Positions 2,305 through 17,365 of a stretch of 64,000 nucleotides of DNA are shown piece after piece. Source of the stretch: an uncultured Gammaproteobacteria bacterium (lineage in GTDB: Bacteria; Patescibacteriota; Patescibacteriia; Magasanikbacterales; GWA2-37-8); NCBI GenBank assembly GCA_964355175.1, contig CAYHBZ010000001.1, positions 439,400 through 503,399 of the forward strand. The letters run 5' to 3'. The first letter of the stretch is position 1. The number at the start of each line of letters is the position of its first letter. The notes under the pieces are model-generated. The model ran no database searches. It saw nothing but the letters and a program-made list of their open reading frames with translations, and had not been told where the DNA came from. The translations under genes and the position numbers were made by a program.

Positions 2305-2802
2305 TTAGACGCCTTCGTGAATCACGATAGTTTTGCCTTTTGGCAAGGTCACTACCGCTTTTTTGTAATCACTGCGTTTGCCGTAATGATTACCGAAACG
2401 AATTGGCTTGCCCTGAACATTGATCATATTCACGGATAGTGGCTTCACGCCATAAACTTCGAAAACAGCTTGGCGCACAGCACCTTTGTTAGCACCGTTG
2501 GCTACTACAAAAATATATTGGTTTTCACTTTGTTTTACAGCACTTTTTTCAGTTACCAAAGCGCGCACCAAAATGTTGTTTTTAATTTTAGCCGCTTTTT
2601 TATCAGCTGGCGCCACTACTTCACCAGTAGCTGTTTCAGCTTTAGCGGTTTTGGTAGTTTTTTTGGCCGCAGTTTTAGCGGAAGTCTTTTTGGCAGGAGC
2701 AGTCTTTTCATCTTTTACCGATTTTTCTTCGGCTTTAGGAGCAGACTGTTTTTCCAAAACTTCTTCTTGCTTCTTTTTGGACCATCTATCAAGTAAACCC
2801 AT
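2305..2802 (-). CDS. rplW: 50S ribosomal protein L23 with about 70-aa Lys/Ala-rich N-terminal extension
   Basis: C-terminal about 95 aa is L23-like (NNILVRALVTEKS...KAVVTLPKG). N-terminal low-complexity K/A/T-rich region. The ORF abuts the rplD stop, which supports the long start. Confidence 0.8.
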   Translation of the reverse strand: MGLLDRWSKKKQEEVLEKQSAPKAEEKSVKDEKTAPAKKTSAKTAAKKTTKTAKAETATGEVVAPADKKAAKIKNNILVRALVTEKSAVKQSENQYIFVVANGANKGAVRQAVFEVYGVKPLSVNMINVQGKPIRFGNHYGKRSDYKKAVVTLPKGKTIVIHEGV

Positions 2803-2827
2803 ATTATTAAAACTCTAAGTGATTAAA

Positions 2828-3457
2828 TTATTTTCCAAAAACTTCTTCCAGTTTTTTCACACCGTCTTTGGAAGTCAAAACTACGCCTTTTTTTAGCAAG
2901 TCCATCACATTGGCATCGCCAGCGCGTAAAGTTTTAACTGATTTCAAATTCTTGGTCATGCGCAAAACTGCTTCATCTTTGCCAGAGGTCAACACCAAAA
3001 AGTTTTTCAACTTGGTTGGCATCGCGGCGAGCACGCCCGCAAACATTTTTGTTTTTGGTTTATCAAAATTGAAATCTTCAAGCACCAAAAGATTGCCAGA
3101 TTGAGCTTTGTCGGAAAGACACATTTTGATCACGGACTGACGAGTTTTTTTGTTGATCTTGGTCTTGTAGTTGCGATCGGTCAAAGGACCAAAAGCGACA
3201 CCGCCGCCCTTCCAGATAGGAGAACGAATAGAACCGTGACGAGCACGACCAGTACCTTTTTGTTGCCATGGTTTTTTACCACCACCGCTTACTTCACCGC
3301 GATTCTTGGTATCAGCCCAAGGTTCACGTTGATTGTTGGTCTGCTGTACAAATACTTGGTGCACTACTTCCGGTTTAATTTTTACGCCGAAAACTTTGTC
3401 GGATAATTCCATTTCACCTGTTTCTTTGCCGGCTAAATTGTAAACTTTAATTTTCAT
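2828..3457 (-). CDS. rplD: 50S ribosomal protein L4
   Basis: 209-aa L4/L1e family sequence in the conserved position between rplC and rplW. Confidence 0.9.
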   Translation of the reverse strand: MKIKVYNLAGKETGEMELSDKVFGVKIKPEVVHQVFVQQTNNQREPWADTKNRGEVSGGGKKPWQQKGTGRARHGSIRSPIWKGGGVAFGPLTDRNYKTKINKKTRQSVIKMCLSDKAQSGNLLVLEDFNFDKPKTKMFAGVLAAMPTKLKNFLVLTSGKDEAVLRMTKNLKSVKTLRAGDANVMDLLKKGVVLTSKDGVKKLEEVFGK

Positions 3458-3480
3458 ATAATAAATTCTTCTGTTTCAAA

Positions 3481-4221
3481 TTAAGCGTTAGAAACTTCAG
3501 TGACTGGAGCTTCAACTACAGTAGATTCCTCTACTACAGGTGCTACAGGAGTTTGTTCCACTACAGGAGCGGATTTTTCTTCGGCCTTTGAATTTTTTGT
3601 AATTTTTAGTTCACCAGGTCCTTGGATAATAATCAAAGCATTGCGACCGCCTGGGACAGCGCCTTTGACATAAATTTCATTTGTTTCAGGATGCACTTCT
3701 ACTACTTCCAAATTCTTTACAGTTACCTGATCGCCACCCATACGACCAGCCATGCGCATACCTTTGAAAACGCGTTGTACACCACCGGCACCAATGGAAC
3801 CAGGAGCACGCAAGTTGTCTTTATGACCGTGAGATGCAGGACCACCACGGAAATGATGACGCTTCACAACACCGGCAAAACCTTTACCTTTACTAACACC
3901 AGTAACTTCAATTTCGTCACCAGCAGTAAACGTATCTACCAAAACCAAATCACCGCGGGTGAGACCCTCGGTTTTTTCTGTACTAAATTCTTTTAAAAAC
4001 TCACTGTTAGCCAAGTCTTTCAAATGACCAGCTTGAGGTTTGCTCAAACGCCATTCTTTCTTTTCACCAAAACCAAGTTGCACAGCGTCCTTCTTTACCA
4101 ATACCACGGTACAAGGTCCGGCCAAAACACGAGTTACTGGCACTACTTCACCGGTAGGTAAAAATACCTGTGTCATTGCGATTTTCTTTCCTAAAATGAA
4201 TTTCATAGTATTTTTTGTCAT
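3481..4221 (-). CDS. rplC: 50S ribosomal protein L3 with acidic/Val-rich C-terminal extension
   Basis: L3 core (MKFILGKKIAMTQVF...) plus a C-terminal tail of about 35 aa. An alternative start at the MKF codon near 4206. Confidence 0.9.
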   Translation of the reverse strand: MTKNTMKFILGKKIAMTQVFLPTGEVVPVTRVLAGPCTVVLVKKDAVQLGFGEKKEWRLSKPQAGHLKDLANSEFLKEFSTEKTEGLTRGDLVLVDTFTAGDEIEVTGVSKGKGFAGVVKRHHFRGGPASHGHKDNLRAPGSIGAGGVQRVFKGMRMAGRMGGDQVTVKNLEVVEVHPETNEIYVKGAVPGGRNALIIIQGPGELKITKNSKAEEKSAPVVEQTPVAPVVEESTVVEAPVTEVSNA

Positions 4222-4281
4222 TGCTTCCCAGACTAAAGGAAGGTAACTTAATTAAATTTCTAATCTTTTTTTAACAAAAAA

Positions 4282-4591: not shown

Positions 4592-4957
4592 TTACATTTT
4601 GATTTCTACATCTACACCAGCTGGCAAATTCAAACTCATCAAAGCATCTACACATTTTGGACCGGCATTGATGATATCGATCAAACGTTTGTGTACGCGC
4701 ATTTCGTACTGTTCGCGAGCGTCTTTGTGGACAAAGGTAGAGCGCAAAACAGTGAATTTGGTCTTTTCTGTAGGTAAAGGTACTGGGCCAATTACTTTGG
4801 CATCGTTGCGAGCAGCGGTGTCAATAATAGTCTTGGTGGCCTGGTCAATAATACGGTTGTCGTAAGCGCGGATTTTGATGCGGATACGAGTACCAACTTC
4901 TTCTTTTGCCTTTGGAGCTACTTTTTCAGCTTTAGTTGTAGGATTTGTAGTTGTCAT
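4592..4957 (-). CDS. rpsJ: 30S ribosomal protein S10 with about 20-aa N-terminal extension
   Basis: S10 core [17 protein letters not shown]... Confidence 0.9.
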
Positions 4958-4996
4958 GTTTTTAATTAAATAAAGGAACTAATTAAAGAACTATTT

Positions 4997-5036
4997 GAAA
5001 AAATCATAAGGGGGGGGTGTTTTTCAACACCTCCCC
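4997..5036 (-). terminator. tuf terminator
   Basis: GC hairpin GGGGGGGTGTT/AACACCTCCCC. A U-run follows on the minus strand. Confidence 0.45.
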
Positions 5037-5043
5037 AAATAAT

Positions 5044-6234
5044 TTATTTATTGATTTTTGTTACTACACCAGCGCCGACGGTACGACCACCTTCGCGGAT
5101 AGTGAATTTCATTTTGTCTTCCATAGCTACTGGAGTGATCAATTTGATTTTCAAATTGACGGTATCACCAGGCATAACCATTTCTACACCAGCTGGCAAT
5201 TCAAGTACATCACCAGTTACATCGGTAGTACGGATATAGAACTGTGGTTTATAGCCTTTGAAGAATGGCTTATGACGACCACCTTCTTCTTTGGACAAAA
5301 TATAAACTTCTGCATCAAATTCAGTATGAGGAGTGATAGAACCGATTTTGGCCAAAACCATACCGCGTTCTACTTCTTCTTTTTTGGTGCCGCGCAACAA
5401 GATACCAGCGTTATCACCGGCCTGACCTTCTTTCAAAGATTTGTTAAACATTTCAATACCAGTAACGATAGTCTTCATTGGTTCTTCACGTAGACCAACG
5501 ATAGCAATTTCATCACCGATTTTGATCATACCACTTTCAATACGGCCAGTTACTACTGTACCACGACCTTCGATGGAGAATACATCTTCAACAGGCATCA
5601 AGAATGGTTTGTCAGTAGCGCGCTGTGGCTCTGGGATATATTCATCCAAAGTCTTGATCAAGTCCATTACTGGCTTGGAAGCAACTTCGTCGGTTGGGCT
5701 TTCCAAAGCTTTCAAAGCGGAACCGCGGATAATAGGAGTGGTGTCGCCAGGGAAACCATATTTGTTCAAAAGATCGCGAACTTCAACTTCTACCAATTCA
5801 ACCAAATCTGGATCGGCCATGTCGATCTTGTTCAAAAATACTACGATGTAAGGCACACCTACCTGACGAGCAAGCAAGATATGTTCACGAGTCTGAGGCA
5901 TCGGACCATCAGCGGCAGATACTACCAAAATAGCACCATCCATCTGAGCAGCACCGGTGATCATATTTTTCACATAGTCAGCGTGACCTGGACAGTCAAC
6001 GTGAGCATAGTGACGTTTTTCGGATTCGTATTCAACGTGAGCGGTAGAAATGGTAATACCACGAGCTTTTGACTCAGGAGCTTTATCCAAATCGCCTACG
6101 CCCTTATTCTGGGCAATACCGCCATGAGCGGCCAACACCTGCAAAATAGCAGCTGTCAAAGTTGTCTTACCGTGGTCAACGTGACCAATTGTACCTACGT
6201 TCAAATGGGGCTTGGTTCTTGAAAACTCAGCCAT
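5044..6234 (-). CDS. tuf: Elongation factor Tu
   Basis: 396 aa. [22 protein letters not shown] motifs. Confidence 0.97.
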
Positions 6235-6355
6235 AGGATTAAATCTTCACGGCTCTACACCCGAGTGGTCGGGGCAGATTTTTGTCCAGCCGTTGTTTTT
6301 GTATATATATATTAATAAAAGAAACACGCTAACCAAATAGTTGATTAGCGTGGGC

Positions 6356-6384
6356 ATTATATCAGGGTTTATTGGTTTTGGCAA
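6356..6384 (-). promoter_or_regulatory. Putative tuf promoter
   Basis: Minus strand reads TTGCCA-17 nt-TATAAT. A stem-loop CACGCTAA/TTAGCGTG sits at the predicted transcript start. Confidence 0.4.
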
Positions 6385-6427
6385 GGGCCAAAGGGGTGTG
6401 GATAAATATTTGACATGAACACATTTT

Positions 6428-7000
6428 TTACTCAACAGGCTCAAGGTAGAATTTTTCCTCTTCTCCTTCGGGTAAATCAGACAAATCTTCCTCGGCAAAA
6501 TTGGTATTTGGGGTCGCTTCCGAAGCGGGCGATATTGGAGCAATATATTTGACTGGTTCAGCAGGTGGCTCTGGAATAGGCTCGGACATTGGGGCAAATT
6601 CAATCTCGTCTTCTAACTCTGAATCTTCTATTTCTTGGCTAAATTTAGCCAAATTTTCTGGTTCTTGGAGTTTTTCCGGTAAATCTTGCTCTTTTTCTTC
6701 TTCTTTGTCCATTTCCTCTTCTTCCAAATCCGGCTCTATTTCCGGCTCTTCATATTGAATTTGAGGCAAAGGGCTCTTTTTTTCATGTTGCTCCTGCCAG
6801 CGGTTGATGTCGTGATTCAGACGGCTGAGCATCTCTTCTTCGGCCAAATTTTCTACTTCGGTAGTAGTATTGAGCAAATCCTCGTACTCATCCAAATTCA
6901 TCACTACCATCGCTTCATCGGTATCTCTATCTAGTACCACAAATCTATCGCCAGTGCGTTTGACCAATCGGATTATTCTGTCCAGTTGTTTCTGTTTCAT
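6428..7000 (-). CDS. Phd/YefM-like N-terminal domain protein with long acidic C-terminal tail
   Basis: The start is placed at MKQKQLDRIIRLV because a TTGACT-17-TAGAAT promoter ends about 15 nt upstream. The N-terminal 45 aa (GDRFVVLDRDTDEAMVVMNLDEYEDLL) resemble the YefM antitoxin fold. The remaining about 140 aa are E/D/P-rich. Confidence 0.5.
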   Translation of the reverse strand: MKQKQLDRIIRLVKRTGDRFVVLDRDTDEAMVVMNLDEYEDLLNTTTEVENLAEEEMLSRLNHDINRWQEQHEKKSPLPQIQYEEPEIEPDLEEEEMDKEEEKEQDLPEKLQEPENLAKFSQEIEDSELEDEIEFAPMSEPIPEPPAEPVKYIAPISPASEATPNTNFAEEDLSDLPEGEEEKFYLEPVE

Positions 7001-7021
7001 AAAAACTAGGTTATATATTTT

Positions 7022-7050
7022 TATTCTATATAAGCAGGGACAAATAGTCA
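7022..7050 (-). promoter_or_regulatory. Promoter for the YefM-like gene
   Basis: Minus strand reads TTGACT-17 nt-TAGAAT. Confidence 0.45.
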
Positions 7051-7171
7051 ACTCAGAAAAATATTTTTCTTCGTACTCCTACATTCTATCTGGCTTTATC
7101 TTTTATGTCTAGATTTGTAAAACGAATTACGGCTCTTAATAAGACGAAAATAACTAAACCAAAGCCTCAGC

Positions 7172-7210
7172 AAATAAAAAATCCAAAGCTCTAGACTCTG
7201 GATTTTTTAT
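7172..7210. terminator. Bidirectional hairpin terminator
   Basis: AATCCAAAG...CTCTGGATT stem with a T-run on one side and an A-run on the other. It lies downstream of the minus-strand gene 7303-7644. Confidence 0.45.
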
Positions 7211-7302
7211 TGGCTCTGACTACAAAATTTATAATCAAAGTGTGGCGCGCCGGATCCTACTCCTTTTTAAGTTAGGGGGCGCGCGGGGTGGGAATGAAAT
7301 GC

Positions 7303-7644
7303 CTAGTGATGGGGCACCTCCTTCAGCTGCGGAGCGGCCAGTCGAGCCGTCTCGACTCGACGACGCCGGCTTGGATCGCGGACGTAGGCCGGAAGATGTT
7401 CTCCGGGACTGATCGAGCTGAACGCCGTCGGCAGTGGCTTGGGCTCGGTGTTGCGGCTGGTCGGCTGGCGCTGGCGCAAAGCAGCCCAGAACCAGGACAG
7501 CAGCTCCCCAGGTTCGGTGAACAACAGTCCGCCGACAATGGCTACCGTGCCGATCACAGGCAACAACGACTCAACGAAGTACGCCACGACGAGCAATGCC
7601 GCCGCGAGGTACTCCATGTAATCACGAAAGGTCCACTTTCGCAT
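7303..7644 (-). CDS. Small membrane protein in a GC-rich islet, two predicted TM helices plus Pro/Arg-rich tail
   Basis: 113-aa ORF with two hydrophobic helices (YLAAALLVVAYFVESLLPVI, GTVAIVGGLLF...SWFWAAL). GC is about 65% against a background of about 40%. The terminator lies downstream on the minus strand. Confidence 0.4.
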   Translation of the reverse strand: MRKWTFRDYMEYLAAALLVVAYFVESLLPVIGTVAIVGGLLFTEPGELLSWFWAALRQRQPTSRNTEPKPLPTAFSSISPGEHLPAYVRDPSRRRRVETARLAAPQLKEVPHH

Positions 7645-7750
7645 TTCTCCCCTTTGCCGGTAGGCAAGGCCGAATTTGGCCCTATACCGGACACAGCTTA
7701 ACTATCATAATTATAACAGAAAGTCAAGGGTAAAGATATAATTATTCAAT

Positions 7751-7790
7751 AAAAAAACCTCCCGAACAATCGAGAGGTTTTTTATTTTAT
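7751..7790. terminator. Terminator of the secreted-protein gene
   Basis: AACCTC...GAGGTT hairpin flanked by an A-run and a T-run. Confidence 0.5.
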
Positions 7791-7801
7791 TTACTTTATT
7801 T

Positions 7802-9550
7802 TTATGGTGTAACCAAATTTACTTTTACTTTTGCCCCACCCTTACCACTGTTACCTTGGTAAGTGAGCTCTACATACCCACCATTTTGTTTGAGCGCATA
7901 TTTTTTCTTGGCATTTACTTTGAGCACTACATTGGTGCTCTTGGCGCCATTTAATTTGAGCCAAACATAAGTGTTATTAAATTTCACTACTTGAAATTTG
8001 AAAACACTACCGTCAAATTTAAACCAGTTATTTTTACAAATAGTATAGATACCGTTGCCGCCCTGTTCATTGGTACAACTATCGCCGGTAGCATCCAGCA
8101 TAGTAGTATTGGAATCTACTTTGATCAGAGCGCGACCTTCGTCTCCTACACCCAAGTAAGTCAACATTACATATTTACCAGGTTTGTTGGTGACATAAAA
8201 AGTTTCTGGCTCATTGATCACCAGATCAGCATCATCTTCACTAAGATTGCTCAATAACACACTGGCGGTTTCACCATCATGATCCACTACTTTAACTTTT
8301 ACACCACTCCAGTAATGATCCACGGCATAGCCGGTACAAACAATGAAATTTACATTGCCGCCGGTGATATCCGAACAAGCTGGCAGAGATGAAGCGGAAT
8401 TGCCTGCGGTACTAGTAGCACTGCCGGCAGTATTAAATTTGAAGTAAGTATAATCAGACCACTGACCGGTAGAGCCGTTTGGAAAGACTGGCAACACACG
8501 AGTGCGGAATTGATTATCTCCGGCCAAAGGCGAAGTAGTGAAACTACTGGAATATGTTTTCCATTTAAAACTATCGGACCAATCGGCACCAACACCACAA
8601 TGATCACAAGCTACTTCCACCATGTAATTGTTGGCATTTTTTACTTCCAACCAATTGATAGTGGCAATACGAGGAAAATTGGTAAAAACAGAATTATTTA
8701 AAGGCGAAGTAATCGTAGTCTTGGATGACAAATCATAGCTTGAAATTGTTTCGGCTTTTTTGGCCTGACAAGCACCGGCTACACAGCCATTTTCACATTT
8801 ATACCACTGAGTATGTACATAATTTTTGCCATTGCCGGAGCTACAGTGAGTTTCGGCGATATAGTCACCGGAAGTTTTATTTTTATCGCCAATATAGGCA
8901 CCACAGCTATCACCATAAGTACCAGCAATACCGCTCACTTCATCATTACCGGTAGCAGTACCATAAACATAGTTATTGAAATTATCGCTTTCAGAACAAG
9001 TAGCGGCTGGAGCTACAGCCGGCTTGCCTTTACAAGCACCGGCCGAGCAACCATATTCACATTTATACCATTGAGTATGAACATATGGATTGGAGCTAGA
9101 ACCACTACAATATTTTTCAGCGATGAAATCGCCAGAAACTTGCCCTTGGTCACCCACATAATTTCCACAAGAATCTTGATAAGAACCAGCCACCTGACTG
9201 ACTTCATCTTTTCCGGTAGCGACACCAACAACATTATAATTCAAGCCACTTTCAGAATCACTGCAAGTAACTACCGGTGCGGCCGTACCAGTACAAGGTT
9301 TCCAATCTACGCGATATTGGGTAGCGGAAAGACAAGCCATAGTGTAATCTTTCAAACCATTACCGGCATCACGACATTCCGAAGTCAAAAAAGCGCTATA
9401 TGATCCATTCACTATCTGAATATCCTTGCCTACCTGAGTACATTTATCTACATTTACCGGATTCCAACCCACTTCCGGCAAAGCTGCTGACGCCATCTTT
9501 GGCGCCAAAGCTACCAGCAGTGCGGCCAGGAGCCAAACACTTTTTTTCAT
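7802..9550 (-). CDS. Secreted cysteine-rich protein with two tandem about 80-aa repeats
   Basis: Signal peptide MKKSVWLLAALLVALAPKMASA. Tandem repeats at aa 96-176 and 185-264 share CS(D/E)S...GDSCG...YVHTQWYKCE(N/Y)GC.AGAC. Native-like composition. Confidence 0.6.
   Translation of the reverse strand: MKKSVWLLAALLVALAPKMASAALPEVGWNPVNVDKCTQVGKDIQIVNGSYSAFLTSECRDAGNGLKDYTMACLSATQYRVDWKPCTGTAAPVVTCSDSESGLNYNVVGVATGKDEVSQVAGSYQDSCGNYVGDQGQVSGDFIAEKYCSGSSSNPYVHTQWYKCEYGCSAGACKGKPAVAPAATCSESDNFNNYVYGTATGNDEVSGIAGTYGDSCGAYIGDKNKTSGDYIAETHCSSGNGKNYVHTQWYKCENGCVAGACQAKKAETISSYDLSSKTTITSPLNNSVFTNFPRIATINWLEVKNANNYMVEVACDHCGVGADWSDSFKWKTYSSSFTTSPLAGDNQFRTRVLPVFPNGSTGQWSDYTYFKFNTAGSATSTAGNSASSLPACSDITGGNVNFIVCTGYAVDHYWSGVKVKVVDHDGETASVLLSNLSEDDADLVINEPETFYVTNKPGKYVMLTYLGVGDEGRALIKVDSNTTMLDATGDSCTNEQGGNGIYTICKNNWFKFDGSVFKFQVVKFNNTYVWLKLNGAKSTNVVLKVNAKKKYALKQNGGYVELTYQGNSGKGGAKVKVNLVTP
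8759..9265 (-). repeat. Tandem intragenic repeat, 2 x about 240 nt, encoding the Cys-rich modules
   Basis: Protein-level repeat mapped back to DNA coordinates. Confidence 0.5.
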
Positions 9551-9620
9551 ATTAATTTAAATTACTCTGCTAATGCAGATTAATAATATCTTTTATTATA
9601 GCAAAAATACAATAAACTTA

Positions 9621-9685
9621 CAAACAAAAACCGCCCGTCACTTAAAACTATAAATAAATTATAATCTTAAGTGAGTGCGGGCGGT
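9621..9685 (-). terminator. Imperfect hairpin terminator downstream of the cytidine deaminase gene
   Basis: CCGCCCGTCACTTAA ... TTAAGTGAGTGCGGGCGG, with a U-run on the minus strand. Confidence 0.35.
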
Positions 9686-9801
9686 CGAAGTGTTGGACCA
9701 TTTTTCCCTCCCCACTTGGCCTAATGACCAAGACATCCTTACGGACGGAGCGATTTGAAATTGCTCTACCCACCATATTTTGGAAGATGGGTTCATGCGG
9801 T

Positions 9802-10311
9802 TTACAACTCGAAACCACAAGGAAAGAAGTCGGCCATGGTACCGATGACGATCTGGCCGTTATCCTGAAGACAGAGAAAACGGATATTTCCGCCACCATA
9901 CTGGCTGAGCAGGCCGCGACAATGTCCACACGGCGTGTATCGAACGTCCGAGAGACTGACGATCGGCACCATGGTGTATTGAGGCGGACTGACAATACGC
10001 TTACTGCTCGGTCCAAGAGCGATAGCAACGGTATCGCAGAGCGCCCTGGGACCAAGAGCGCCGATCATCGCGGCCAGCGTGGCCGCTTCGGCGTGAATGG
10101 TGCTCGTCTGAGCATGATCTTCTACATTACAGCCATAGAACATGCGATCAACCCCGACAGGACGCAACGCCGCTCCCACCATGAACTGCGACACCGGCAC
10201 ACTCGCATGCTCACGCGCACGAATGGCTCGAGCCAGAAGCACACGATCAGCTTCGGACATTTCATCCCAGACACACACCCGCACACTACCTGTAATCTCA
10301 ATCGTCCGCAT
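9802..10311 (-). CDS. cdd: Cytidine deaminase (CDA-fold zinc deaminase), GC-rich
   Basis: HAE and PCGHCRGLL zinc-binding motifs. About 62% GC, but an AT-rich upstream region with TTGCAT-16-TAGTAT and a GGGAG Shine-Dalgarno. Confidence 0.7.
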   Translation of the reverse strand: MRTIEITGSVRVCVWDEMSEADRVLLARAIRAREHASVPVSQFMVGAALRPVGVDRMFYGCNVEDHAQTSTIHAEAATLAAMIGALGPRALCDTVAIALGPSSKRIVSPPQYTMVPIVSLSDVRYTPCGHCRGLLSQYGGGNIRFLCLQDNGQIVIGTMADFFPCGFEL

Positions 10312-10445
10312 TGCTATACTCCCAACCAGCCAGTTGATTGCTGATTTGCGGGCATACTAACATATATTTTAAAAAATGCAATGATTATACATTGGACAAT
10401 AAAAATCATAATTGATAGAATATGGCTATATAAATTCTAAAAAAT

Positions 10446-10775
10446 ATGGCTAAACAATATTTTGAATTAAAAAAAGATCAATATCGAAAAAATCGTGGAG
10501 GTTATTCACGCTTTCTAAATATTTTTTGTGACAGTTGTAGCGCGCATTTGGCTCTATATCAAAAAGATGGTCCAGGTGAACTAAAAAGAATGTACCTCGA
10601 CAGAATTTTGGCGCCAAAAATTAAAAAAAATAAAACTATGGACTTCAAATGCTCCGCTTGTCAAAAAGTTGTCGGAACTTTCTATAATTATAAAAAAGAA
10701 GATCGACCGGCAATCCGTTTGTACCAAGGATCGGTAATAAAAAAAGTCGGAATTGGAATTTATCCTTTAAAATAA
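10446..10775 (+). CDS. Zn-ribbon protein (CxxC...CxxC), AT-rich paralog
   Basis: 109 aa. RGGYSRFLNIFCDSCSAHLALYQKDGPGELKRMYLDRI...CSACQ. About 50% identical to the GC-rich ORF at 13157-13522. A TTGGAC-18-TAGAAT promoter lies upstream. Confidence 0.55.
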   Translation: MAKQYFELKKDQYRKNRGGYSRFLNIFCDSCSAHLALYQKDGPGELKRMYLDRILAPKIKKNKTMDFKCSACQKVVGTFYNYKKEDRPAIRLYQGSVIKKVGIGIYPLK

Positions 10776-10787
10776 ATAGCGTAAAAA

Positions 10788-10822
10788 AACAATGCCTACT
10801 GAATTGGCATTGTTTTTTATTT
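10788..10822. terminator. Bidirectional terminator
   Basis: AACAATGCC-tactgaatt-GGCATTGTT with an A-run on one side and a T-run on the other. It ends both the plus Zn-ribbon gene and the minus GC-rich operon. Confidence 0.6.
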
Positions 10823-10922
10823 TAAAGACACAATACAAATATTATGTTCTTAATACGGGGTCTGCAGATGCGGCTACAGATTATCCCCTCCCTTTTCCTT
10901 TTGTGAAATGACCGCATTCAAA

Positions 10923-11486
10923 TTAGAACGACTGGATGTAGTTGGTGAAAATCGCTTGCGCGATTCGACTGATCTGACCCTCTTGCGAGACGATCTCATA
11001 GTCGTAATCACCGACATACCCCAAAGCCCAGAAACGCTCCAGCTCCTTTTGCGCGCTAGCGAAACGCGCACCGTCGGCATCCCGACCGTCTTTTCCCAAA
11101 CGCTGACGAAGCACGTCGAGCGAAGGCGGAGAAACGTAGATCGAGAACAGTTGACCAGGGAATGCCTGCTTCATGATCGACAGTCGATCGATCGGCCAGT
11201 CCAGCACCGGGAATTTCTCGGCGGACAGAGCCGCTTCAATCGGCAACCTCGGCGTCCCGTAAAGGATTCCGCCGAAGAGTTCGTTGACCACGAGCAGTTC
11301 GCCACGTTGCGACATTGCATCCATCTGGCTACGGCTCACCGAAACCTTATTCCTCTCTCCTTCCCGAAGCGGACGAGTCATGTAGGGACAGATGTAGACG
11401 AAGCGGTCGTCGAGTTTCGACAACTCGTCGATGACAGCACTCTTGCCCACGCCCGACGGACCCAGCAACAGCATGAACCTGCTCAT
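10923..11486 (-). CDS. Guanylate kinase-like NMP kinase, GC-rich
   Basis: P-loop LLLGPSGVGKS, Gmk-like TRPLREGE, and PPSLDVLRQRL / DYDYEIV segments. The start ATG overlaps the upstream stop (TGATG). AGGAGG lies 6 nt upstream. Confidence 0.6.
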   Translation of the reverse strand: MSRFMLLLGPSGVGKSAVIDELSKLDDRFVYICPYMTRPLREGERNKVSVSRSQMDAMSQRGELLVVNELFGGILYGTPRLPIEAALSAEKFPVLDWPIDRLSIMKQAFPGQLFSIYVSPPSLDVLRQRLGKDGRDADGARFASAQKELERFWALGYVGDYDYEIVSQEGQISRIAQAIFTNYIQSF

Positions 11487-12322
11487 CACTTCCTCCTTTC
11501 CAGGTTGAGAGCTTCTTTCGTCGTGACCGTAGCCATTTGAACGGCTGTTTGCCACGACTCAGAAGCGCCTGGATAGAGCAGGCCGCGAGAAGAGTTCACG
11601 AAGACGCCGAGACCTTCCGAGTTGAGCAGTTTGCCCAGATCCTGGTAGCTTCCACCTTGAGCACCGACACCGGCGAGCAGGATCGGCATGTTGTTCGGGA
11701 TGAGCGGGCGGATATTGTTCATATCCAACCCTGCCGTCGAGGACAACACGGGGATCATGTTACCGTTGCGATTCCAACGATTCACCACCAGGTCCAGCAT
11801 GTACTGCCAGAGCATGCGACCGTCATGGAGACGGACATCCTGAACAACACCGCCGGAGATGTTGCTCGTCTTGACGAGTACAACGACAGACTTGTCTTTG
11901 AGCTCCATGAGCGGTTCGATGACATCGTCCCCCATGTAGGGGTTCACGACGACACCGTCCGCCTGGATCTCTCCAAACAGGTTGTCGATGTAGGCCGCCA
12001 TAGTGTTCTCGATATCGCCGATCTTGCAATCGACAATCACGGGAACTCCCGGCAAAGTGCGATGGACGTAGTGGACGATCTCCTTGAGTACATCATGTCC
12101 ACCGGACATGAGATCGAAGAACGCCTTCTGCGCCTTGAACGCACAGACATGTGGACCAGTAGCATCCACGGCTCCCTGCAGAAACGCCAGAACCTTTTCT
12201 TCCTTGCTCCCGGGCTGTTCCAGCACTGCGCGCGGCAGTTTGGAAAAATCCGGATCAAGGCCGGCGCACAATAGAGTGCCCTGCTCGCGCATACGCGCGA
12301 AGAGTTGCTGATTCGCAATCAT
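11486..12322 (-). CDS. Orotidine-5'-phosphate decarboxylase-like (type 2 ODCase family), GC-rich second copy
   Basis: AGLDPD and VIVDCKIGDIENT preserve the DxKxxD catalytic motif. Paralogous to native pyrF at 41352-42170. AGGAGG SD. Confidence 0.65.
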   Translation of the reverse strand: MIANQQLFARMREQGTLLCAGLDPDFSKLPRAVLEQPGSKEEKVLAFLQGAVDATGPHVCAFKAQKAFFDLMSGGHDVLKEIVHYVHRTLPGVPVIVDCKIGDIENTMAAYIDNLFGEIQADGVVVNPYMGDDVIEPLMELKDKSVVVLVKTSNISGGVVQDVRLHDGRMLWQYMLDLVVNRWNRNGNMIPVLSSTAGLDMNNIRPLIPNNMPILLAGVGAQGGSYQDLGKLLNSEGLGVFVNSSRGLLYPGASESWQTAVQMATVTTKEALNLERRK

Positions 12323-13132
12323 TTACCCCTCCTGGATGTGAAGGCCTTGATGGTTGAGGTGTTGGCCCTTGGCGGCCAAATGGCGAGCGGTATGCTCGGT
12401 GGCCGGCACGATCACCGGCACGAGCTGGTCGCTAACCTTGTAGCCGTTTTCGCCAAAGACTGTAGCCTTGTAGGGGTTGTTGGTCGCCAGATCAATAGCA
12501 CACGAAGACGGCACCTCGAAGAATTTGAGGATGCAGACGACGCCGGAGTAGGTCCGGACATCGATGACGCCACCAGGTGCCAAGAGGCTGGCCGACTCGA
12601 CCGTGTTCACCTTGAGCTGTTCTTGAAGCCAGAGGGTAGCGAGCTTGAAGGTCAAGCCCATCCCCCGGCCATCTTGACGCGGGATGTTCACGATCATACC
12701 TTCCCCGACCTCGGCGAGCGTCTGCATAGCCAGCTTGAGTTGCTGACAGCATTCGCACGTCCGATCGCCGAAGACCTGGCCGGTTTCGCATCCCGAATCG
12801 GTACGCAAAACCAACCGTTCCTTCCGCTTGAAGACGGGGTTGAGGGTATTGAGGTCGATCTCGCCCCGAAGCAGCACGGAGTATTTCTCCCACTGGTCGT
12901 CGATGGCGAAATTGTACTGCCAAAACGACCCGAACTCGGTGTTGAGAACGCCGAGACCACGACGCTCCACGAAGTAGAAACGCCTGTCTCCAGCCTCCAC
13001 GACATCGATGCGCTTCTGCACCGGCTGCATAGAGCTCTGGACGAGAGCGATGAACTTCTCAACTTCCTGAGGGGACATGCCCGACTTGGCAATGATCTTG
13101 ATCATGTCGGGCGGGGGAACGCTGATAGCCAT
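12323..13132 (-). CDS. GTP cyclohydrolase II-like protein, GC-rich, with a non-canonical residue at the ring-opening Tyr position
   Basis: LRTDSGCETGQVFGDRTCECCQQL matches RVHSECLTGD..CDCGxQL (zinc Cys). NIPRQDGRGMGL matches YHRQEGRNIGL with Tyr replaced by Ile/Pro. LATNNPYK matches LLTNNPKK. AGGAGG SD. Confidence 0.65.
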   Translation of the reverse strand: MAISVPPPDMIKIIAKSGMSPQEVEKFIALVQSSMQPVQKRIDVVEAGDRRFYFVERRGLGVLNTEFGSFWQYNFAIDDQWEKYSVLLRGEIDLNTLNPVFKRKERLVLRTDSGCETGQVFGDRTCECCQQLKLAMQTLAEVGEGMIVNIPRQDGRGMGLTFKLATLWLQEQLKVNTVESASLLAPGGVIDVRTYSGVVCILKFFEVPSSCAIDLATNNPYKATVFGENGYKVSDQLVPVIVPATEHTARHLAAKGQHLNHQGLHIQEG

Positions 13133-13156
13133 GGCTATCCTCCTGATGCTTGATGG

Positions 13157-13522
13157 TTACAGATTGGTCGGCGGGTACATCCCGTCGCTCTTCTTCTTGC
13201 CGAAGGAGCCGGGCACCATACGGAAAGCCAGACGATTTTCCGGTTCGTACACCATGGGGGTGGCGATGAGCACATTGCACTGAGGGCAGAGCAGGTTGGG
13301 CAGCGCCTTCTTGTCGAGGGCCTTGCCCTTCAACTCGGCCAAAGTCGGCGGAGCGAAGATGCGATCGACATACATGCGCAAGAGCGCGCCAGGGCCGTCC
13401 TTTTGGTAAAGGGCGACATGGGCGTGGCAAGCGCAGCAGACGATGTTGAGGAAGCGAGAATCGCCTCCACGAGCCCGCGAGTAGCTGTCCCGCTTGGCCT
13501 GAAACTTGATTGGTTCGGTCAT
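13157..13522 (-). CDS. Zn-ribbon protein, GC-rich paralog, first gene of the operon
   Basis: 121 aa. RGGDSRFLNIVCCACHAHVALYQKDGPGALLRMYVDRI...CPQC. 24 nt upstream of the GCHII-like gene. Confidence 0.5.
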   Translation of the reverse strand: MTEPIKFQAKRDSYSRARGGDSRFLNIVCCACHAHVALYQKDGPGALLRMYVDRIFAPPTLAELKGKALDKKALPNLLCPQCNVLIATPMVYEPENRLAFRMVPGSFGKKKSDGMYPPTNL

Positions 13523-13648
13523 GGTTCCTCTGTTAGGTGAGAGTGGATGGTTGTTTGAGCTTTTGGTTAATCATTCATTATCAAAGAACCGGCCCTAGAC
13601 TACCACAATTTTTTGTTTTAAGCAAGGGTACGAGCTATTAATAAATTT

Positions 13649-15406
13649 CTAAAATTTTTGTTTATTCCATAATTCAAAAAATCTACCTTTCTCTTCCATC
13701 AAACTTTTAAAATAACCAGTCTCAATTAATTCTCCATTTTCGAGCAATAAAATTTTATCCATTTCTTGGATAGTGGTGAGGCGATGCGCAATCACTATTG
13801 CCGTCACTTCTTGAAAAAATTTATGCAGTGAATCTTTTATTTTTTCTTCGGATTCCAGATCCAAATGAGAAGTAGCTTCATCCAAAAATAAAATATCCGG
13901 CTTTTTAAAAATCGCTCGGGCAATACCGACTCTCTGCTTTTCTCCACCAGACAACTTTACACCCTTTTCCCCTATCAAAGTATCTAGACCTTCTGGCAAT
14001 TTCGACATGAAATCCGTAATATGAGCCACACCCACAGCCATTTGCAAACGCTCTTTGGACTCTATATTACCGCCGGCCATAATAATATTTTCTTTAAGAG
14101 AAAAATTTAAAACTTCTGTATCCTGCAAAACCACGGCCGTATTTTGGTAAAACGAACTCTTTTTAATTTTGCGGATGGAAATATTGTCGAGCAAAATATC
14201 GCCGGTAAAATTTTCGTACTCCTTGAGCAATAATTTAAACAAGGTGGATTTGCCGGCTCCAGATAATCCCACTATTCCAACTCTTTGCCCGCGTTTGATC
14301 TCAAAGGAAATATTCTTTAACACCGCGCGATCACCGTAAGAAAAAGAAACATTTTTAAATTGAATAGTCTGCCAATTGATTGGAAAATTTATTTTGTTGG
14401 CATCGTTGTCGATCAAAACTTTTTCGTTTAAAACATCTTTTAGACGGCTGACATGATATCTGGCTACTACCAATTCCTGAGAAACGTGGGAGAGCTCCTC
14501 TGCCGAAGTGCGCAGGTTGATAAAATAAAGATTAAACAGCAACAAAAATCCCAAATCATAACGCCCCGCCGCAATACCAAAAGCTATTAAAACCATGGCG
14601 CCGACGCGAAAAAAATGTGACCAATTGCTTTGGATAAAAATTTTGACGGCAAAAATATTAATACGTCTGGCTGTGCTTTTATAAACCTTATCAGCGTAGT
14701 TTCCCAACTTAGGAAAAAGCTGACCAAACATACCCATTACTTTGATACTGCGAATATTGTTGAGAATTTCAAAAGACAGACCATGCAAATCTTCTTCTTG
14801 GCGACTTACTTCCTTAGCTGCGGCCACCACCCGTCTACTTATCGGCATTACCGCCGTGAGATAGGTGACTAAAAATACAAGCACAATCAAAGCCACGCGC
14901 CAATCGATAAAATACAAAATAATTATCATGCCGACAAAGTTGACCCCAATTTCAATCAAATTGTTTATCCAAATTCGCAAAGAGGTTTCTATGCCAAGCC
15001 CGCCACTCTCGATGCATTTGAGGCGATTGCCGGTATTTTCTTTTTCATGCCAAGCAATATCTAGCAGACTGATATGACGAAACGCGTTTACCTGAGTTTC
15101 CAAATTTACTTTTTTGCCAACCTTACTACAAAGAAATTTGCCGGCTTGACGAACATTGTTGGAATAGATATAGGCCAGAGTCCAGATAATAAGTATATAC
15201 CAAAAAGGCTTCAAAGAATCGCCGGGATTATAGTGATTGAAAAAAGAAATAACTTTGGCCAAAGCCAAAGAGGTGTATAGGTAAATGCCGTCGGCGCTCA
15301 AACGCAACAAAGTGGCTAACCAAAATTTACCCTTTTGATTACCCAGAGAGCTATAAACATCGGAAGCAAGAGAGAAATAGGAGTAGTCGGTTTTTGAATT
15401 CTTCAT
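13649..15406 (-). CDS. ABC exporter, fused permease + ATPase (MsbA/MdlB-like)
   Basis: Six predicted TM helices followed by Walker A GLSGAGKST, signature LSGGEKQR and Walker B ILFLDE. Start chosen at MKNSKTD. The ORF track extends to 15466, but the repeat/terminator abuts it. Confidence 0.75.
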   Translation of the reverse strand: MKNSKTDYSYFSLASDVYSSLGNQKGKFWLATLLRLSADGIYLYTSLALAKVISFFNHYNPGDSLKPFWYILIIWTLAYIYSNNVRQAGKFLCSKVGKKVNLETQVNAFRHISLLDIAWHEKENTGNRLKCIESGGLGIETSLRIWINNLIEIGVNFVGMIIILYFIDWRVALIVLVFLVTYLTAVMPISRRVVAAAKEVSRQEEDLHGLSFEILNNIRSIKVMGMFGQLFPKLGNYADKVYKSTARRINIFAVKIFIQSNWSHFFRVGAMVLIAFGIAAGRYDLGFLLLFNLYFINLRTSAEELSHVSQELVVARYHVSRLKDVLNEKVLIDNDANKINFPINWQTIQFKNVSFSYGDRAVLKNISFEIKRGQRVGIVGLSGAGKSTLFKLLLKEYENFTGDILLDNISIRKIKKSSFYQNTAVVLQDTEVLNFSLKENIIMAGGNIESKERLQMAVGVAHITDFMSKLPEGLDTLIGEKGVKLSGGEKQRVGIARAIFKKPDILFLDEATSHLDLESEEKIKDSLHKFFQEVTAIVIAHRLTTIQEMDKILLLENGELIETGYFKSLMEEKGRFFELWNKQKF

Positions 15407-15466
15407 ATATGCAAATATGCAAATTACTATAACATAATAAAATTCAAAAAACAAAGCTGAAAACAA

Positions 15467-15503
15467 AAGACGCCTTTTGATGAAGGCGTCTTACAATGTG
15501 CAG
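15467..15503. repeat. 37-bp direct repeat, left copy
   Basis: AAAGACGCCTTTTGATGAAGGCGTCTTACAATGTGCA matches 16607-16643 at 35 of 37 positions. Contains the hairpin GACGCCTT/AAGGCGTC. Confidence 0.6.
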
Positions 15504-15561
15504 AAGAACGGGTAAGGTGACAAATTATTTTAGATAATTTAAAATAAATTATTTTCTAAAT

Positions 15562-16491
15562 CTAGATATCTTTACGTTCCAGGATATTAAACCCATCCAA
15601 CACCGCATCACACAAAAAATTTTCTAATTGGCTATTATCTTTTTTAGTTTGGGCTTTATATAAAAAAGTATAATATAATCGTTTCTGTTGTTGGTGAATA
15701 ATGGCGGGGGCAAAATTATGTCGCAATAACATTGCCGTCATAAGCAAACGACCAACGCGCCCATTACCATCGGAAAAAGGATGCACCTGTTCAAACTGTC
15801 TGTGGATATCAGCCGATAATGAAATAATATCGCTATTTGATTTTGCGGCCAAAATAACTATCTCGTCAATCAATTTTGGCACACTCATAAAATTGGCAGT
15901 GGCTAAATTTACTCCCAAAATTCTCACGCCATGCCGACGATACAATCCGGCGTCAGATTGAATACCGTTCATCAAAATACTATGTAATTTTAAAATAAAA
16001 TTTTCGTCAATCTTTTTCTTTTTGAGGACATGCTCAAATAAATAATTCAAAGCAGTCTGGTGATTTTTTGCCTCCATTTGTTCGGCCAAACTTTTGTTGG
16101 GCAAGGCCACATTATCAAAAATAATAGCCGCGGTATCCGGCTCTGTCAAGGTACTCCCCTCGATACTATTACTATGGTAGGTCAACTTTAAAATAAACTG
16201 ATCACGGATATCCGGATTATCCAAAATTTCCTTCACAATATTTTTGTGTTCAGATGACTTTTTACTTAAAAATTGTTTTTTGGCAATTAATTGGGTGGCC
16301 GGAATAATTTTTTGACCGGTCATTTCTAAAAACAATTCATCTATGGCTATCTGCATTTTTACTCTTGGTACAGATTTTTCATTCCACCAATTATTGAAGG
16401 CCACAAAAGATACCCCCAGTTTATAGGCTATTTTAGTCTGAGTAAGACCAGACATTTTCTGAATTGTTTCAAGTTTTTGCTTGATTGTCAT
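15562..16491 (-). CDS. HTH-Fic fusion protein (Fic/Doc family, N-terminal XRE-like HTH)
   Basis: Fic motif HPFSDGNGRVGRLL. Inhibitory-helix-like SNSIEG. N-terminal HTH MSGLTQTKIAYKLGVS. Confidence 0.85.
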   Translation of the reverse strand: MTIKQKLETIQKMSGLTQTKIAYKLGVSFVAFNNWWNEKSVPRVKMQIAIDELFLEMTGQKIIPATQLIAKKQFLSKKSSEHKNIVKEILDNPDIRDQFILKLTYHSNSIEGSTLTEPDTAAIIFDNVALPNKSLAEQMEAKNHQTALNYLFEHVLKKKKIDENFILKLHSILMNGIQSDAGLYRRHGVRILGVNLATANFMSVPKLIDEIVILAAKSNSDIISLSADIHRQFEQVHPFSDGNGRVGRLLMTAMLLRHNFAPAIIHQQQKRLYYTFLYKAQTKKDNSQLENFLCDAVLDGFNILERKDI

Positions 16492-16500
16492 AATATAACC

Positions 16501-16529
16501 ATATTAGCAAACTTTATAAAGTTTGTCAA
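16501..16529 (-). promoter_or_regulatory. Fic promoter with palindromic operator in the spacer
   Basis: Minus strand reads TTGACA-17-TAATAT about 10 nt before the ATG. An 18-bp perfect palindrome CAAACTTTATAAAGTTTG fills the spacer. The half-site CTTTATAAAG recurs near 16548. Confidence 0.45.
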
Positions 16530-16606
16530 ATACTCTGATTCTTTATAAAGTTATAAATAGTACGCCTGGAGTGGCAAACTCCATTTCTTCAGTTAGTTGA
16601 GATAAA

Positions 16607-16643
16607 AAAGACGCCTTTTGATGAAGGCGTCCTACATTGTGCA
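16607..16643. repeat. 37-bp direct repeat, right copy, overlapping the tRNA-Arg 3' end and its terminator
   Basis: See the left copy. The last 4 nt overlap the tRNA 3' terminus. Confidence 0.6.
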
Positions 16644-16711
16644 CTCATTAGGAGTCGAACCTAAATTTTCGGCTTCGCAGGCCAATGTCCTATCCATTGA
16701 ACGATGAGTGC
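16640..16711 (-). tRNA. tRNA-Arg (anticodon GCG)
   Basis: Manual cloverleaf. Acceptor stem GCACTCA/TGAGTGC. D-loop AATGGATA. Anticodon stem TTGGC/GCCGA with loop CTGCGAA. T-arm TTAGG-TTCGACT-CCTAA. Discriminator A. 72 nt. Confidence 0.8.
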
Positions 16712-16770
16712 AAATTTAGCTTCAATACTGTACTAAAAAAAGTTGATTTTGTCAACTTTCTTAGTATTTT

Positions 16771-17274
16771 TTAAATTTTCATGATTCGGCCCATTCTGTC
16801 GCTGAGCGGCTCCTCCTCTTGTTCCAAATCCTCTTGCAAAAATTGATTCAAATAATCGCGAATCGGACGCGGATCAAAATCGTACAGAGGCACCTGAATG
16901 CGGTGATGCAACAGGCTATCCTGACTAAAATATAAATTTTTGGTAAAGGGCGGATTATAAATTATCCAAAAATTGTTTAATTCACTGTAGCGATAATACT
17001 TTTTGCCCACCACTATGCCGGTATTGGTAAGAGCGAAATACACTTCCATCGGCTCTACCATATCCTGCATAAATAAAATGATACCAAAAAGGACAGTGAT
17101 AAGCGCGAACAAATAATTGCCCGACACTACACCGTAGGCGACCATCGCGGCGCCAAGCAGTCCCATGGCTACGTACCAACCTTTTCCGCGTTCGTGCCGT
17201 TCGTATTCTTTCACACTCCATTCGTATTGCACGTTTCCGATATTGACGTCGGAATTTAAAATATTTTGCGACAT
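16771..17274 (-). CDS. Hypothetical membrane protein, 2 TM
   Basis: 167-aa ORF between two tRNAs. Hydrophobic segments with an acidic C-terminus. Confidence 0.45.
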   Translation of the reverse strand: MSQNILNSDVNIGNVQYEWSVKEYERHERGKGWYVAMGLLGAAMVAYGVVSGNYLFALITVLFGIILFMQDMVEPMEVYFALTNTGIVVGKKYYRYSELNNFWIIYNPPFTKNLYFSQDSLLHHRIQVPLYDFDPRPIRDYLNQFLQEDLEQEEEPLSDRMGRIMKI

Positions 17275-17291
17275 ATTGAAAATTTGACCAG

Positions 17292-17365
17292 TGGATGATA
17301 CTGGATTTGAACCAGTGACCTTTGCAATGTGAATGCAACGCTCTAACCAACTGAGCTAATCATCC
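17292..17365 (-). tRNA. tRNA-Val (anticodon CAC)
   Basis: Manual cloverleaf. Acceptor stem GGATGAT/ATCATCC. D-arm GCTC-AGTTGGTTA-GAGC. Anticodon stem TTGCA/TGCAA with loop TTCACAT. T-arm ACTGG-TTCAAAT-CCAGT. Discriminator A. Confidence 0.75.

Follow-up and report, generated by a model that had tools for sequence, protein, structure and literature searches.

In the 64-kb stretch of DNA that was analysed (the window), the tuf/S10 cluster and tRNA-Arg(GCG) are separated by the genes and non-coding features collected in Table 1. An earlier note on this DNA had listed the genes together with GC-rich patches, a boundary at tRNA-Arg and a direct repeat around the Fic gene; all of these are present, and they are reproduced in independent assemblies. 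Because contigs from other runs are 99.9% (positions 4741-6990 of the window) to 100% (12750-17359 and 11045-14406) identical, the region is not a chimeric assembly.

Table 1. Features of the interval between tuf and tRNA-Arg and of its flanks (feature, position in the window, strand, remarks)
S10	4592-4957	-	
tuf	5044-6234	-	
YefM-like, acidic tail after YefM-like N-terminal domain	6428-7051	-	conserved left flank
GC-rich unit	7165-7725	-	own promoter-like site TTGACT-N17-TATAAT-like, read from sequence
Terminator of GC-rich unit	7169-7215	-	
2-TM ORF, 113 aa, GC-rich	7303-7644	-	
Secreted Cys-rich repeat protein, 582 aa	7802-9550	-	signal peptide and repeats from translation
Conserved element of ~190 nt directly 3' of cdd	9597-9800	-	
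cdd, cytidine-deaminase-like, GC-rich	9802-10311	-	Pfam dCMP_cyt_deam_1 E 7e-11
ZnR1, 109-aa four-Cys zinc protein	10446-10775	+	AT-rich paralog, GC3 0.23
Guanylate-kinase-like (gmk-like)	10923-11486	-	family match
pyrF, OMP decarboxylase type 2	11486-12322	-	pyrF_sub2 182.7 vs cutoff 110.6
GTP-cyclohydrolase-II-like	12323-13132	-	family match
ZnR2, Zn-ribbon	13157-13522	-	
MsbA-like ABC exporter, permease and ATPase fused	13649-15406	-	family matches
Distal boundary of Fic cassette	15465-15527	-	25-nt arm 15503-15527 (AATTTGTCACCTTACCCGTTCTTC), then core TGCACA, then terminator hairpin 15465-15502
HTH-Fic	15562-16491	-	Pfam Fic E 3e-18; HPFSDGNGRVGR motif in translation
Fic cassette leader	16556-16605	-	vestigial arm-like motif GGAGTTTGCCACTCC
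Proximal repeat copy	16606-16643	-	last 5 nt of tRNA-Arg, trailer and terminator hairpin
tRNA-Arg(GCG)	16639-16711	-	ARAGORN, Rfam; right limit of variable interval
167-aa membrane protein	16771-17274	-	conserved right flank
tRNA-Val(CAC)	17291-17365	-	conserved right flank

Both flanks are conserved. The 167-aa membrane protein has counterparts in 9 relatives (59-91% identity) and always lies between the tRNAs wherever a contig includes both, and tRNA-Arg(GCG) is kept alongside DUF167 and tRNA-Val in L087-L094 and L100. On the left side, a YefM-like homolog is found immediately 5' of tuf in L089, L093, L100, L101, L104 and L105 (44-70% identity) as well as in L002, L003 and L006 (36-42%), the last being a distant CPR genome with the order rpsL-rpsG-fusA-YefM-like-tuf. 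The match of the window protein to PhdYeFM (E 1.3e-4) is weak and under the Pfam cutoff, and a toxin partner is absent. The view that the interval is accessory is supported, but the YefM-like gene is a conserved neighbour of tuf and not cargo. This gene lies only just outside the start (7050) that the earlier note had given the region. Among the loci compared, tuf adjoins the tRNA-Arg/tRNA-Val pair in this clade only; in more distant relatives tuf is preceded by fusA, and the 0.2-10 kb of upstream sequence at each locus contains no tRNA.

The mean GC content in 500-nt windows outside 7000-13500 is 0.397 (sd 0.044). Against this background of 0.40, three patches stand out, namely the nucleotide operon at 10923-13522 (0.571), 7170-7700 (0.571) and 9597-10311 (0.519), and at their edges the GC content jumps by 0.17 over a few tens of bases. 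The GC3 values are 0.58-0.78 for the GC-rich genes and 0.29-0.51 for the flanking genes. Because the genome GC3 is about 0.3-0.5, the GC-rich genes appear to have been imported. In the operon (GC3 0.68-0.78) the genes for ZnR2, the GTP-cyclohydrolase-II-like protein, PyrF and the gmk-like protein overlap or abut. L083, L084, L096, L097 and L099 carry this set of genes too, in varied neighbourhoods, and L086 carries part of it. In L083, L084 and L097 the module has a host-like GC content, and the window copy therefore fits a donor of about 52-57% GC. The operon is not random cargo but a five-gene nucleotide module conserved throughout Patescibacteria, and the copy in the window was probably acquired from a higher-GC relative. 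A predicted model of ZnR2 shows a beta-tent-like fold. ZnR1 and ZnR2 are Zn-ribbon paralogs with about 48% identity, and ZnR1 orthologs (66-87% identity) adjoin the module in L083, L086 and L097 and are located at the tuf/tRNA-Arg locus in L100 and L104.

The GC-rich unit next to the YefM-like gene (GC 0.57, GC3 0.75) carries a conserved 3' hairpin, CGCGCGCC..AAAGGAG..GGCGCGC, then ACACTTTG..TTTGT..AGAG; this 3' end is kept in 5 genomes and has no match in an Rfam search. The 2-TM ORF has positional homologs in L100, L101 and L104 (20-38% identity), each ending in ..HH. The gene of the Cys-rich protein has a host-like GC content, and a 62-nt stretch within it is repeated (at 8760 and 9024). 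A Pfam search returned no family for its product, which L101 (88%) and L104 (86%) share with the window and which L100, L089 and L093 lack. The cdd translation contains HAE and PCGHC zinc motifs, and its family is narrow, since just 14 homologs were found; the gene occurs in L100, L101, L104 and L105. The element 3' of cdd comprises four hairpins together with an intrinsic terminator that has a long stem. Counting that of the window, seven copies are known, the others coming from five relatives (nhmmer E 1e-19 to 1e-69), and the alignment of the seven sequences contains compensatory changes at 11 predicted pairs. The element has no match in an Rfam search and is a candidate for a structured RNA.

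Seven haplotypes of the interval, including that of the window, were recovered. Starting from tRNA-Arg, the window contains Fic, the ABC exporter, ZnR2-GCH2-pyrF-gmk, ZnR1, cdd with its element, the Cys-rich protein and the GC-rich 2-TM ORF (GC2TM). The haplotype of L096 and L104 has this order without Fic and with an additional 340-aa gene. In L100 a serine recombinase, a 182-aa protein, a helicase and a 142-aa protein are followed by Fic, ZnR1, cdd with the element and a GC2TM-like ORF, while L101 contains cdd with the element, a 124-aa protein, the Cys-rich protein and proteins of 135 and 196 aa. L089 carries four cassettes, Fic and HicAB among them, and L105 carries cdd with the element, Vut_1, a sigma factor and MacAB-like efflux genes. 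In the four relatives that span the interval, the cargo between the flanks (tRNA-Val-DUF167-tRNA-Arg and YefM-like-tuf) measures 9.2 kb in L089, 8.7 kb in L100, 4.8 kb in L101 and only 2.0 kb in L093. The synteny comparison that the earlier note had proposed thus speaks for a variable region: relatives with the same flanks differ in cargo and length, and the stretch between tRNA-Arg and the tuf operon is a real hotspot of gene swapping.

The Fic protein, which also matches PADLOC PDC-S04 (E 3e-45) and SoFic (E 6e-28), is the cargo of a cassette of 1,141 bp (about 15465-16605). The cassette is bracketed by a direct repeat (15465-15502 and 16606-16643) that is 95% identical over 38 nt, and a 31-nt core of the repeat, allowing up to 3 mismatches, occurs at these two sites only in the 64 kb (chance expectation 0.00). 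L089 and L100 carry Fic at other positions in their arrays, with 91% and 86% identity, respectively; compared with L089, the nucleotide identity is 82.8% for the cassette and 73.5% for the adjacent flank. A 45-nt piece of the leader stands before Fic in L100; in L089 it precedes a 554-aa cassette and is missing ahead of Fic. An empty site exists in the sister strain L096, whose positions 1-63 match 16668-16606 of the window (100% identity) and then lead straight into the ABC upstream region (89.6% identity over 1.8 kb), with the join falling within the 38-nt repeat. Fic is therefore a discrete 1.14-kb cassette that is precisely absent from L096. The ABC exporter gene has a host-like GC content and is 92% identical in L096, where it directly follows the terminator of tRNA-Arg and precedes a copy of arm, core and terminator.

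Each boundary unit is composed of a cassette-borne 25-nt arm, TGCACA (the last bases of the tRNA) and the tRNA trailer with the terminator hairpin. The core is common to 13 aligned copies; to its left, tRNA-side copies have tRNA sequence and cassette-side copies have the arm, and behind four different cassettes of L089, L096 and L100 it is the same arm that leads into the core. There are 5 copies in L089, delimiting its four cassettes, and 2 each in L096 and the window. The proximal repeat copy would correspond to attB/attL. Any one genome has a single hairpin variant (CCTTCATC for the window, L096 and L100; CTTTTATC for L089 and L101), which also fits gene conversion. The conservation of the unit could reflect the function of its working-looking intrinsic terminator, which would also help to anchor homologous recombination.

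Pfam, NCBIfam and PHROGs searches of the proteins of the region detected no integrase or transposase families, in agreement with the earlier note, and no conjugation or mobilisation genes were seen in the region or in the relatives. The sister genome L100 (tuf 97% identical), however, has a 5.7-kb large serine recombinase element at the 3' end of tRNA-Arg. Its ORF 2794-4248, on the reverse strand and adjoining the tRNA, contains Resolvase, Recombinase and Zn_ribbon_recom domains; a homolog of this recombinase was not found in the 64-kb window. At the left junction (GTGCACAA|CCGGGG) the element is joined right after ..TGCACAA, and at the right junction an arm-like AATTTGTCA is followed by a half-deleted hairpin. 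Because there is no clean direct repeat and the hairpin is 16 nt short, use of the att site by this element is read from its position only.

The interval 7052-16638 is a lineage-specific hypervariable hotspot. We hypothesize that it arose by serial site-specific integration at the 3' end of tRNA-Arg followed by decay to recombinase-less cassettes, and we consider this reading probable. Against it count the lack of a recombinase gene in the region, the lack of a homolog of the L100 enzyme in the window and a tuf-side 6 kb free of arm and core copies; excised circles and attP forms have not been observed. The tRNA-Arg 3' end with its terminator would serve as attB, elements entering by site-specific recombination, most likely through a large serine recombinase from an L100-like element. 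Each integration would leave an arm and core at the far end, so that arrays would extend outwards from the tRNA. Loss of the recombinase gene would then produce single-gene cassettes without a recombinase, here Fic and the ABC exporter, which could yet be mobilised in trans or lost through deletion between copies of the core. The stepwise tRNA-targeted acquisition suggested by the earlier note is thus borne out for the tRNA-proximal part by the L096 empty site, the boundary copies and the L100 element. For the tuf-side half it is unsupported, because this half has no att-like scars (arm and core searches of its 6 kb found zero copies) and the closest relatives share its gene order: ZnR1, cdd, the Cys-rich protein and the GC-rich small ORF keep their order in L104, L101 and L100, and in L104 the run gmk-ZnR1-cdd-Cys-rich-GC2TM-YefM is collinear with the window (80.6% nucleotide identity). 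The tuf-side half may be older, combining resident AT-rich ZnR1 and the Cys-rich protein with GC-rich imports from higher-GC Patescibacteria (the ZnR2/GCHII-like/pyrF/gmk-like nucleotide module, the small membrane protein, and cdd along with the RNA element 3' of it) that would predate the split of the closest strains. The cargo likely serves in defence or as a toxin (Fic), in export, in nucleotide salvage and as surface proteins.

Could cassettes instead be swapped, gained or deleted by homologous recombination after natural transformation, without any site-specific recombinase, the flanks and the 60-nt units of arm and terminator acting as anchors? We regard this as unlikely, although a DprA gene lies 4 kb away, the region lacks a recombinase, and repeats of 38-63 nt with 90-95% identity suffice for RecA-dependent deletion. 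The per-genome homogenisation of the hairpins and a tuf-side half that varies without att-like scars agree with it too. It leaves unexplained, however, why a shared 25-nt arm of non-tRNA origin ends four unrelated cassettes and why the L100 element sits exactly at TGCACAA, and the first acquisition of unrelated genes would still require an illegitimate or site-specific step.

Differential loss from a larger ancestral block, rather than gains at the tRNA, seems improbable. The closest relatives do share sub-blocks in the same order (the gmk to YefM run of L104), the ABC exporter and the module are common to the window and L096, and direct repeats favour deletions. Yet the GC3 of the GC-rich genes points to import, the cargo of L089, L093, L100 and L105 is mostly unrelated and not a subset of one set, the array position of Fic differs among the window, L089 and L100, and in more distant CPR genomes fusA, not a tRNA, precedes tuf. 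The abrupt GC steps might also suggest that the GC-rich patches stem from another, higher-GC organism and were joined to this genome in assembly or binning. This is highly improbable and is contradicted by contigs from three other samples (L082, L095, L001), which are 99.9-100% identical across the AT/GC junctions, and by L096, L100, L101 and L104, which carry the same GC-rich genes within AT-rich flanks.

The tRNA-Arg hotspot represents a familiar type of genomic island in an unusual lineage, the candidate phyla radiation (Patescibacteria). The tandem ssrA islands of Dehalococcoides lie downstream of the gene for a small stable RNA, and a direct repeat of the 3' end of this gene closes each island; just upstream of each repeat is a short conserved motif, unalignable to the RNA gene, and a CcrB-type large serine recombinase lies on the reverse strand beside attL (McMurdie et al. 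2011, PMC3146451). Some of them have no integration genes, for which the authors suggest cis-mobilizable elements, and the region is the main site of between-strain variation (PMC3146451). The 25-nt arm corresponds to the motif upstream of each repeat, and the L100 recombinase is likewise on the reverse strand beside the tRNA-side junction. On the other hand, the target here is tRNA-Arg(GCG) with its terminator instead of tmRNA, the repeat reaches only 4-6 nt into the RNA gene (the remainder being trailer and terminator), the units are single-gene and of 1-2 kb compared to islands of 10-30 kb, and the six-gene integration module is absent, with no recombinase at all in the window.

At orfX, SCCmec and composite SCC arrays are built by large serine recombinases (CcrAB), which integrate elements with resistance genes as cargo serially at one chromosomal site; this results in tandem elements between short direct repeats, and elements that lack a recombinase stay in the array and remain mobile in trans. 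Our locus likewise has tandem elements with short repeats, for which serial integration at one site is proposed (the comparison is drawn in part in PMC3146451). The SCC target is the 3' end of rlmH, a protein gene, and not tRNA-Arg; the L100 recombinase shares its Pfam architecture with CcrA/B. Cis-mobilizable elements (CIMEs) have lost integration and transfer genes and kept attL and attR (Guedon et al. 2017 review, PMC5704250). The Fic and ABC cassettes are similarly recombinase-less and bounded by core copies, but CIMEs derive from ICEs or IMEs moved by conjugation, genes for which were not seen here or in the relatives. Integron arrays also consist of mostly single-gene cassettes with a 3' recombination-site-like sequence that are added beside a fixed primary site. 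In contrast to integrons, the locus lacks an IntI tyrosine recombinase, attI and a Pc promoter, its cassettes carry their own promoter-like sites, and its boundary units are near-identical with a perfect terminator hairpin, whereas attC is conserved in structure only.

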